The translations under genes and the position numbers were made by a program. A stretch of 64,000 nt of DNA from Escherichia coli (GTDB lineage Bacteria > Pseudomonadota > Gammaproteobacteria > Enterobacterales > Enterobacteriaceae): the NCBI RefSeq assembly GCF_002854065.1, contig NZ_CP024147.1; one strand, written 5' to 3'. Shown here piece after piece: positions 33,101 to 35,100 of this stretch (the first letter of the stretch is position 1; each line of letters opens with the position of its first letter). The notes under the pieces are model-generated. The model was not told the origin of the DNA, made no database searches, and was given only the letters and a program-made list of their open reading frames with translations.

Positions 33101-34810
33101 GAAATCCGCCACCGGCTGGCGCGTGATGCGGCGGGCCGGCTCACGGCAAAGGAGACAGCCGATGGCCGTACGGAATACGTCCATGATGCGGCTGACCGGC
33201 TACTGGAAATCCGCCGCCGGCGGTCGGATGCCGGGGAAACGGACGCCCCGGAGATTATCCGCTTCAGCTACGACAGACTGGGGCGGATGCTGAGCGAGGA
33301 GACGGCGCAGGGCATCCTGACCCACCAGTACGATGAACTGGGCAACCGGACTGCCACCACCTTTCCGGACGGCAGAACGCAGCGCCATCTGTACTACGGC
33401 AGCGGCCATCTCCAGCAGATAAATCTGGACCGGGAAGTCATCAGCGAGTTCACGCGCGACCACCTGCACCGTGAAGTGCTCAGAAGCCAGGGGCGACTGA
33501 GCACGCGGCAGCTTTACGACCCCGGCGGGCGGCTGAAGCGCAGGGAGACATACAGCGGGATGCGCGGGGTGGTACCGGAGACGTTCACGGACCGGCAGTA
33601 CAGCTACAGTGGCGAGGATGAACTGCTGAAGACGCGGCACAGCCGGCGGGGGGAAACGGATTACTTCTACGACCCCACGGGGCGCATCACGGCGTGTCGT
33701 TCGGAGGATGAGGGGTATCTGGCGAGCTGGCAGTACGACGCGGCGGGAAACCTGCTGGGGAGGCGCGCGGGGGAAAGGGCCACGGCAGAAAACAGCGTGG
33801 TGCCGTTCAACCGGCTGATGTCTTACCGTGGTGTGCACTACCGTTATGACGAATTTGGCCGTGCGGTGGAAAAGGAGGGCCGGAGCGGAACGCAGAGTTA
33901 CCGTTATGATGCGGAACACCGGATGGTGGAAGTGACGACAGCGCGGGGGACATACCGGTATGTGTACGATGCGCTGGGGAGGCGGACGGAAAAACAGCAC
34001 ATCAGCCCTGACGGAAAACCGTACAACCGGACAAAATTTTTATGGGACGGGATGCGGCTGGCGCAGGAGAGCAGGCCGGAGGGGACAGGCAGCCTGTATA
34101 TCTACAGGGACCAGGGGAGTTATGAACCGCTGGCGCGGGTGGATAAGGCGGGGAAAGAGGGACCGAACCGGATACTGTATTTTCACACGGATGTGAACGG
34201 CGCGCCGGAAGAGATGACGGACAGTGACGGGAAAATCGTGTGGGAGACGGGGTATCAGGTCTGGGGTAACACGATACAGGAGAAGGACCACGGCAGGGTG
34301 GAGCAGAACCTGCGCTACCAGGGACAGTACCTCGACAGGGAAACGGGGCTGCACTACAATCTGCACAGGTACTATGATCCGGATGTCGGGCGGTTCATGG
34401 TAACGGATCCGATAGGGCTGCTTGGTGGATTAAACTTATACCAATATGCACCGAATCCGTTGGGGTGGATCGACCCGTTAGGTTTAAAGTGTGGGCAACC
34501 TGAATGGACAAATCATGGATACAAACATTTTCCTCCAAAAAACAAATCATGGAAGGATATAATTAAATCAACAAAATCAGGCCCGGCAAAATATTCTCCC
34601 GATATTGATATTAAAACGCTGGAATACGATGTTTTTAATACAGGCACACCTGTTACCAACGGTAAACCATGGAAAGTAAAAGATATGGGGAAAGTTATTG
34701 GGGCCAGTGAGGGTAAAGAATCTCAATGGGTTCGAGTTGAACTTAGCGGTGGGACAATACATGGACATCCCATATCACTTGATGAATTCCGAAGGCTAAC
34801 AACACCATGA
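30176..34810 (+). CDS. Rhs-family polymorphic toxin, class II prePAAR type VI secretion effector architecture
   Basis: 1544-aa ORF: prePAAR motif [10 protein letters not shown] (aa 7-16), hydrophobic TM region 1 (aa ~20-76), split PAAR-like segments ([23 protein letters not shown]), TM region 2 (aa ~349-390), long YD/RHS repeat core (YDxxGRL repeats), C-terminal [32 protein letters not shown] boundary, then a short variable tip. Confidence 0.9.
   Translation: [1544 protein letters not shown]
30194..30223 (+). other. prePAAR motif (AARxxDxxxH)
   Basis: Codons 7-16 encode [10 protein letters not shown]. Confidence 0.7.
34487..34810 (+). other. Rhs C-terminal polymorphic toxin domain (family not recognised)
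   Basis: 107 codons after [112 protein letters not shown]; abrupt drop in GC relative to the Rhs core. Confidence 0.7.
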
Positions 34811-35100
34811 ACATTGATTTCTTAGGAAAAAAAGGGAATGTAATTTTTAATGACTTCTCCCTGAAACAAAGCATCCCTCTTAATGAACAGCGAGATGAAC
34901 TTAAGGAAGATATGCTCCAGGTTGAATATCCTGGTGGGTATCTTTTGGATGTTGGGTGGCGACCATCTTTTAATTTAAATGGGAATTTTTATATTTGTTT
35001 AATAAAGGATTTTGATTGGGATACTCCCATTTATAATGGTTCTGCGAAAGATATTGTCTCATTATTATTTGAAATTAACCAAGCTATAAATAAACTTTAA
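34807..35100 (+). CDS. putative cognate immunity protein of the Rhs toxin tip
   Basis: 97-aa AT-rich ORF whose ATG overlaps the rhs stop (ATGA); the usual toxin-immunity arrangement in Rhs loci; no family recognised. Confidence 0.65.
   Translation: MNIDFLGKKGNVIFNDFSLKQSIPLNEQRDELKEDMLQVEYPGGYLLDVGWRPSFNLNGNFYICLIKDFDWDTPIYNGSAKDIVSLLFEINQAINKL

Follow-up and report, generated by a model that had tools for sequence, protein, structure and literature searches.

The 64,000-nucleotide stretch of Escherichia coli DNA analysed here (assembly GCF_002854065.1, contig NZ_CP024147.1; hereafter the window) carries, at positions 34487–35100, a horizontally exchanged toxin/immunity cassette that closes a class I prePAAR Rhs operon. 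The cassette consists of the C-terminal toxin tip of an Rhs protein and of a short open reading frame (ORF) that overlaps its end. Structure prediction identifies the tip as a probable ribonuclease (RNase) of the BECR fold. Conserved gene neighbourhood supports the 97-aa ORF as its cognate immunity protein, apparently translationally coupled through an ATGA overlap. As the most likely function we consider an RNase toxin delivered by a type VI secretion system (T6SS) with a dedicated immunity protein, a reading that these comparisons and models make likely. Since a near-identical copy from Salmonella bongori has already been published, the cassette is a solid, fairly ordinary case of a known kind.

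An earlier reading of the DNA letters (the original prediction) had placed the end of the Rhs core at the DPLGL motif (34472–34486), and NCBIfam Rhs_assc_core (TIGR03696) indeed stops exactly at residue 1437, i.e. at nucleotide 34486. The proposed 107-codon tip and 97-codon ORF overlapping the rhs stop are likewise found, with the ATG of the latter sharing ATGA (34807–34810) with the rhs TGA; the C-terminus of the Rhs ORF reads ...RRLTTP. Three guanine-cytosine (GC) contents counted by hand over 60 nt each (0.333 at 34561, 0.267 at 34981 and 0.717 at 32881) proved exact. Overall GC content is 0.62 in the Rhs core, 0.40 in the tip and 0.32 in the immunity ORF (whole window 0.52), and at third codon positions (GC3) the corresponding values are 0.76, 0.26 and 0.27. 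Among segments of 614 bp within the 64 kb, just 0.9% are equally AT-rich, and only two GC drops in the window exceed the one at about 34426. This compositional break is biological and not a product of chance.

Comparison with another E. coli rhs locus displays near-perfect identity up to the DPLGLK codons (about 34489) and none across both ORFs, with identity returning exactly at the terminator hairpin at about 35100. A megablast search with 34300–35200 recovered the whole segment in 15 of 5,426 complete E. coli genomes, with flanks common to 226. In S. bongori, a similar tip is joined to a different Rhs core. The homology break, the GC3 break, the counts of 15 versus 226 genomes and the occurrence of the tip on another Rhs core and on other scaffolds (see below) together bear out the idea of a swapped-in polymorphic toxin/immunity cassette. 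The 15 carriers form two allele groups, seven at identities of at least 99% and eight at about 96–97%, and come from diverse hosts and sources (baboon, cattle, human, rodent, wastewater). While the Rhs shell is nearest to RhsA of Pseudomonas protegens, the tip is nearest to the S. bongori Rhs protein, whose core matches far less well; the protein is a clear mosaic in which shell and tip have different histories.

Neither of the two proteins, nor any of 41 toxin and 45 immunity homologues, has a match in Pfam or NCBIfam. A sequence search of the PDB aligns the tip at about 89% identity over 106 residues with the C-terminal domain of entry 8QJC (E = 8e-63). PDB searches with single sequences and with profiles yielded 8qjc as the sole match of the toxin, and no credible match of the immunity protein. 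A weak match to Tad2 anti-Thoeris (E = 0.08) was gone with profile search and is taken as chance. In 50,697 phage records, tblastn with the toxin found no match even at E ≤ 10.

Entry 8QJC is the PAAR-Rhs protein of S. bongori plus its toxin (Kielkopf et al., bioRxiv 10.1101/2024.02.26.582050). The authors could assign no family to this toxin; an RNase fold was predicted, and H1437, K1458, H1515 and H1517 were listed as candidate catalytic residues. The toxin could be expressed only together with the immunity gene and was released by cleavage as a separate band; within the cage, it was disordered in the crystal (10.1101/2024.02.26.582050). The four candidate residues are H14, K35, H92 and H94 of the E. 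coli tip. The DPLGL boundary, these four residues and a downstream immunity gene are thus common to both proteins, whereas the shells differ, the E. coli core being nearest to P. protegens RhsA instead. A literature search yielded no paper on the toxin/immunity pair beyond Kielkopf et al., and no published RNA-cleavage enzymology for the toxin family. The designation as an unrecognised family in the original prediction accordingly stands with respect to curated libraries, and does not stand with respect to the literature and to structure comparison: no strong profile match to a well-characterised family was found, and structure and literature narrow the claim substantially.

The AlphaFold2 model of the toxin (59-sequence alignment, pLDDT 95.9) displays two helices, followed by a meander of five strands and a helix at the C-terminus. 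Foldseek with this model returned only MafB2-CT and YxiD-CT, with probabilities of 1.00 and 0.98 and TM values of 0.52–0.57. MafB2-CT of Neisseria meningitidis (PDB 8HHJ) is an RNase of RNase A-like fold, the toxicity of which needs H335, H402 and H409. YxiD-CT of Bacillus subtilis 6633 (PDB 9V8I), a member of Pfam Ntox50, acts as a metal-dependent tRNase and requires K446, H447, H521, K524 and H528. An N-terminal helical segment followed by an antiparallel meander sheet of 4–5 strands, together with similarity to members, is what characterizes the BECR fold, and all of this is seen in the model. The nearest characterised fold relatives being RNases, we therefore regard the toxin as a BECR-fold protein with RNase relatives. 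The cautious earlier wording, compatible with a small nuclease, may thus be raised to a probable BECR-fold RNase, as the fold searches place the tip beside two proven RNase toxins. Alternatively, the BECR scaffold might be put to a use other than free RNA cleavage: the tip might cut mRNA in a ribosome-dependent manner like RelE, poison gyrase like ParE, cleave DNA or act on nucleotides; with RNases as its closest fold neighbours, we consider this unlikely, although it is the best of the competing explanations.

The relation to Ntox50 (PF15542) deserves closer consideration. The motif set of this family was given as H, S, K, T, H, K and HxVP, and the MuF protein gp04 of phage phiC2 was named as a carrier (Zhang et al., 2012). 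The C-terminus of phiC2 gp04 matched 8hhj_B (E = 4e-8) and 9v8i_B (E = 6e-6). A search seeded with these sequences retrieved 282 proteins, and PF15542 was present in all 120 of the matches listed. In the Clostridioides phage record, gp04 (3459–4856) is annotated as a head maturation protease. It is a MuF-like protein; its last approximately 100 residues are a genuine Ntox50 RNase domain, on which the annotation is silent.

Against this family, the E. coli toxin gave no match to PF15542 or any other Pfam model even at E ≤ 10, and none of 41 toxin family members matched PF15542. Comparison by hhalign of the toxin family with Ntox50 alignments of 3 and, subsequently, 117 sequences gave no significant profile-profile homology (probability 0.35–1.8%). 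The hidden Markov model (HMM) of the toxin family, run by hmmsearch with filters off, reached up to 10.7 bits with YxiD-like proteins, which is marginal. These alignments follow one collinear register of about 80 residues (KH/KH, KY/FY, NGK/NGR, vIGAS/kIGK, and a last segment on the YxiD side of yIE-ttrG-tIH). In shuffled controls, at least 10.7 bits were reached in 1 of 40 replicates; at least five sequences at 7 bits or more occurred in 0 of 40, versus six real sequences, which are themselves interrelated. The register is thus no more than suggestive of kinship with Ntox50.

From the motif set, the tip has the N-terminal K13-H14, and the C-terminal H...K..HxVP is not matched. Identity to YxiD-CT and MafB2-CT is 16–17%, and where Ntox50 has its own terminal H...K..HxVP strand, the toxin family has H-G-H-P and an extra C-terminal helix instead. 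The immunity proteins are also unrelated to the 97-aa ORF: YxxD is Sm-like, and MafI2 differs from YxxD in conformation and recognition mode. Membership in Ntox50 was rejected, as neither the defining HMM nor the terminal H..K..HxVP motif is matched, and we read the toxin family, within the BECR fold, as a clade sister to Ntox50. The more far-reaching proposal is that the tip and its partner form a separate, uncurated clade of BECR RNases of about 600 clusters in Gram-negative and Gram-positive bacteria, with its own catalytic constellation (K-H ... K-Y ... R-x-E ... H-G-H-P and C-terminal helix) and its own immunity fold family; this we put forward tentatively, as possible and somewhat doubtful. 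Compared with the Ntox50 structures, the RNase A-superfamily contact-dependent inhibition (CDI) toxin CdiA-CT of Yersinia kristensenii (PDB 5E3E) lies further from the tip. It has a catalytic set of His/Arg/Thr/Tyr, versus His/Lys/His/His in the tip family, and reaches its target through a type V CdiB/CdiA system.

Conservation of polar residues, counted over 194 full-length family members, is highest for H92 (192), H14 (191), H94 (183), K13 and Y36 (182 each), E85 (175), K35 (174) and R83 (168). All family-invariant residues are present in the E. coli tip, and K35-Y36, R83 and E85 are invariants distinct from those of Ntox50. K13-H14 aligns with the essential Lys-His of YxiD, and computed alignments place H92 on H521 of YxiD and H402 of MafB2, the second Ntox50 histidine. 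H94 may take over the role of the third, whose terminal strand the family replaces with G-H94-P and a helix. Hairpin geometry and published superpositions on the Y. kristensenii CdiA-CT suggest an alternative mapping in which H92 lies on H528/H409 and E85 replaces the second histidine. The manual version of this mapping, with E85 as the second Ntox50 histidine, H92 as the third and H94 as the Val of HxVP, finds no support in the computed alignments.

A profile search of 1.84 billion representatives found 602 toxin clusters at E ≤ 1e-3, 133 of them at E ≤ 1e-30. Among all matches listed, the toxin domain is at the extreme C-terminus, in host proteins of 85 to 3,340 aa. The scaffolds comprise Rhs, PAAR, filamentous-haemagglutinin/CdiA-like, HINT/intein-like and signal-peptide proteins as well as bare 107-aa ORFs, which is normal behaviour for a polymorphic toxin domain; recurrence on other scaffolds, proposed earlier as a check, is thus confirmed for Rhs, PAAR, CdiA-like, HINT and stand-alone proteins. 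In the JGI metagenome 3300061720 (3549–4201), a bare 107-aa toxin lacking a delivery domain is overlapped by a 110-aa immunity homologue, and the pair sits among sulfatase and glycosidase genes. It may be that the pair also occurs on its own, in the manner of a toxin-antitoxin system. In Proteus mirabilis GCA_031872815.1 (5738–6294), the toxin ORF is cut to 87 aa and has lost the N-terminal Lys-His, with the 97-aa immunity gene intact; this orphan module resembles a relic that has kept its immunity gene within an rhs array.

The 97-aa protein is acidic (isoelectric point (pI) 4.5) and complementary in charge to the basic toxin (pI 9.4). Its homologues, of which 51 were detected, share an invariant ...L-x-E-D-M-L-Q... 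loop, and the AlphaFold2 model of the 97-aa protein (pLDDT 91.9) has only generic fold matches. The label SMI1/KNR4 (SUKH), attached by one source to one homologue, was not reproduced by profile matching. An immunity homologue lies directly downstream of the toxin domain, overlapping or at most 12 nt away, in all five loci examined, namely two Proteus mirabilis rhs arrays, Paenibacillus behind a HINT-toxin fragment, and two distinct metagenome loci. The Paenibacillus partner matches the immunity family profile with an hhalign probability of 99.8%. The toxin is conserved at 55–76% identity versus 35–57% for the partner, and such faster divergence is expected of a cognate pair. The idea of an overlapping immunity gene is in this way supported by gene order. 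A competing view, in which the 97-aa ORF is an adaptor or some unrelated small gene and immunity comes from another source, could draw on its missing family assignment and generic fold matches. It is the least probable of all explanations given the homologues directly 3′ of the toxin, whatever the scaffold, in five independent loci that span Proteobacteria to Firmicutes, the faster divergence and complementary charge of the 97-aa protein, and the need for the downstream ORF for expression of the S. bongori toxin.

Based on this dataset, we hypothesize the following mechanism for a T6SS-delivered RNase toxin. The Eag chaperone would shield the N-terminal transmembrane segments, and the PAAR domain would attach the Rhs protein to a VgrG spike, the T6SS itself being encoded at another site of the genome. 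The 12-kDa tip would be enclosed in the Rhs cage, and the Rhs aspartyl autoprotease would cut after DPLGL. In the cytoplasm of a neighbouring cell, the basic tip would cleave RNA, with acid-base catalysis probably by H14 (preceded by K13), H92 and H94, assisted by K35, R83 and E85. The acidic 97-aa protein, made by ATGA coupling, would bind the toxin 1:1 and occlude its RNA-binding face, possibly through the invariant E34-D35 loop. Support for this explanation comes from anatomy, boundaries, fold, conserved residues and co-occurrence as established here, and from autocleavage and the need for immunity co-expression as reported by others for the approximately 89% identical homologue; RNase activity, catalytic roles, RNA substrate, the mode of immunity and delivery by a T6SS are inferred.

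It could also be argued that the cassette is a relic without current function, in which the tip is decaying and the immunity gene was left behind. Orphan and truncated modules are abundant in rhs loci, the Proteus copy of 87 aa without its N-terminal KH beside an intact immunity gene provides an example, and the tip is rare in E. coli (the 15 of 5,426 genomes mentioned above). However, neither ORF is broken, both are in frame with a 1544-aa Rhs protein that is complete and has its chaperone, every family-invariant residue is kept, and the approximately 89% identical S. bongori tip could be produced only together with its immunity protein. A relic hence appears highly improbable, and a T6SS-delivered RNase toxin with its immunity protein is retained as the preferred reading.

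The window is E. coli core chromosome with the gene order asnB-nag-glnS-fur-kdp-ybfA-[island]-ybgA-phrB-...-sdh-suc. The island between ybfA and ybgA is a complete class I prePAAR Rhs operon, in which the Eag chaperone gene is followed by a gene for a prePAAR-TMD-PAAR-Rhs protein (TMD, transmembrane domain); coordinates are listed in the table below. NCBIfam RHS_core matches the Rhs ORF with E = 1.7e-96 and YD_repeat_2x in 11 stretches; DUF6531 and the YD-repeat cage come after the PAAR motif, and the Pfam prePAAR_I match is weak (E = 0.91). A YD-repeat core, a DPxGL boundary before a variable tip, PAAR and prePAAR motifs and an adjoining Eag gene, the hallmarks of class I prePAAR effectors, are all present. 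The closest solved relative of the shell is P. protegens RhsA (PDB 7q97, 1054.7 bits). The RhsA-EagR1 system (7Q97) has the same chaperone gene, AARxxDxxxH motif, transmembrane segments, PAAR motif, Rhs cage and DPxGL autoprotease, whereas its C-terminal toxin is unrelated, the match ending at residue 1440 of the E. coli protein; the E. coli locus also differs in having no adjoining vgrG or T6SS genes. No tss or vgrG genes were found within the 64-kb window. An AT-rich intergenic stretch of 740 bp (28965–29704, GC 0.33) separates ybfA from the Eag chaperone gene, with two sigma-70-like sites near positions 29355 and 29552; this stretch may serve as promoter of the operon or represent a silenced regulatory region.

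Table. Features of the Rhs operon, its terminal cassette and other elements of the window.
Feature	Position	Strand	Basis
Eag-type chaperone gene (DcrB/DUF1795, 150 aa), first in operon	29705..30157	+	Pfam DcrB PF08786 E = 3.9e-19; RefSeq 'DcrB-related protein'
prePAAR-TMD-PAAR-Rhs effector ORF, 1544 aa with toxin tip	30176..34810	+	NCBIfam RHS_core, YD_repeat_2x, Rhs_assc_core; Pfam PAAR_motif, DUF6531
prePAAR motif (residues 7-16, pattern AARxxDxxxH), then hydrophobic transmembrane segments	30194..30223	+	read from translation
PAAR motif region (residues 291-321)	31046..31138	+	Pfam PF05488 E = 2.1e-5
End of Rhs-associated core with DPIGL...DPLGL autoproteolysis motif (residues 1360-1437)	34253..34486	+	TIGR03696 E = 5.1e-28
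Toxin tip, 107 codons (residues 1438-1544), predicted BECR-fold RNase, 12 kDa	34487..34807	+	AlphaFold2 model, fold matches
Candidate catalytic K13-H14	34523-34528	+	conserved in family
Candidate catalytic K35-Y36	34589-34594	+	conserved in family
Candidate catalytic R83	34733-34735	+	conserved in family
Candidate catalytic E85	34739-34741	+	conserved in family
Candidate catalytic H92	34760-34762	+	conserved in family
Candidate catalytic H94	34766-34768	+	conserved in family
Putative cognate immunity gene, 97 aa, acidic	34807..35100	+	ORF, translation, homologues, gene neighbourhood
Bidirectional intrinsic terminator, 17-bp stem, 3′ boundary of cassette and operon end	35098..35139	.	terminator scan, both strands
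SymE-family type I toxin gene, directly after rhs cassette	35144-35473	-	
isrA small RNA match, antisense within symE	35274-35402	+	Rfam, 112.9 bits, E = 2e-24
ES036 (CssrF)	37589-37631	+	Rfam gathering-level; unrelated to rhs locus
naRNA4 (CssrE)	55012-55082	-	Rfam gathering-level; unrelated to rhs locus
naRNA4 (CssrE)	59456-59526	+	Rfam gathering-level; unrelated to rhs locus

Downstream of the cassette, symE and isrA have the appearance of a type I toxin with its antisense RNA. In E. coli, different Rhs tips are followed by a conserved symE flank (the flanks being common to 226 genomes), which also occurs inside Proteus rhs arrays. Other AT-rich stretches of the window (614-bp GC ≤ 0.40) are located at about 61680–62650, 63310–63995, 19960–20875 and 49040–50045, and the largest GC step is found near 62006. 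An IS1 element lies near 62.1–62.8 kb in the matching CUWW06 genome, and the remaining AT-rich stretches are the speF leader and fimbrial-gene regions.

The understanding of Rhs systems is unchanged by this cassette. Its significance lies in a widespread pair (about 600 toxin clusters, with the partner found from Enterobacterales to Paenibacillus) that is missing from Pfam and NCBIfam and is hence labelled hypothetical by genome pipelines, which makes a case for defining two new family models, one for the toxin and one for the immunity protein. The structural link to the Ntox50 RNases MafB2 and YxiD provides a testable active-site hypothesis involving H14, H92, H94, K13/K35 and R83/E85. If the toxin family does represent a separate clade, its RNA target or chemistry could differ from those of YxiD and MafB2, for example by addressing a specific tRNA or rRNA site. 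In E. coli, this Rhs allele of the ybfA–ybgA rhs locus is rare, being present in 15 of 5,426 complete genomes, and should mediate antagonism at the level of strains.

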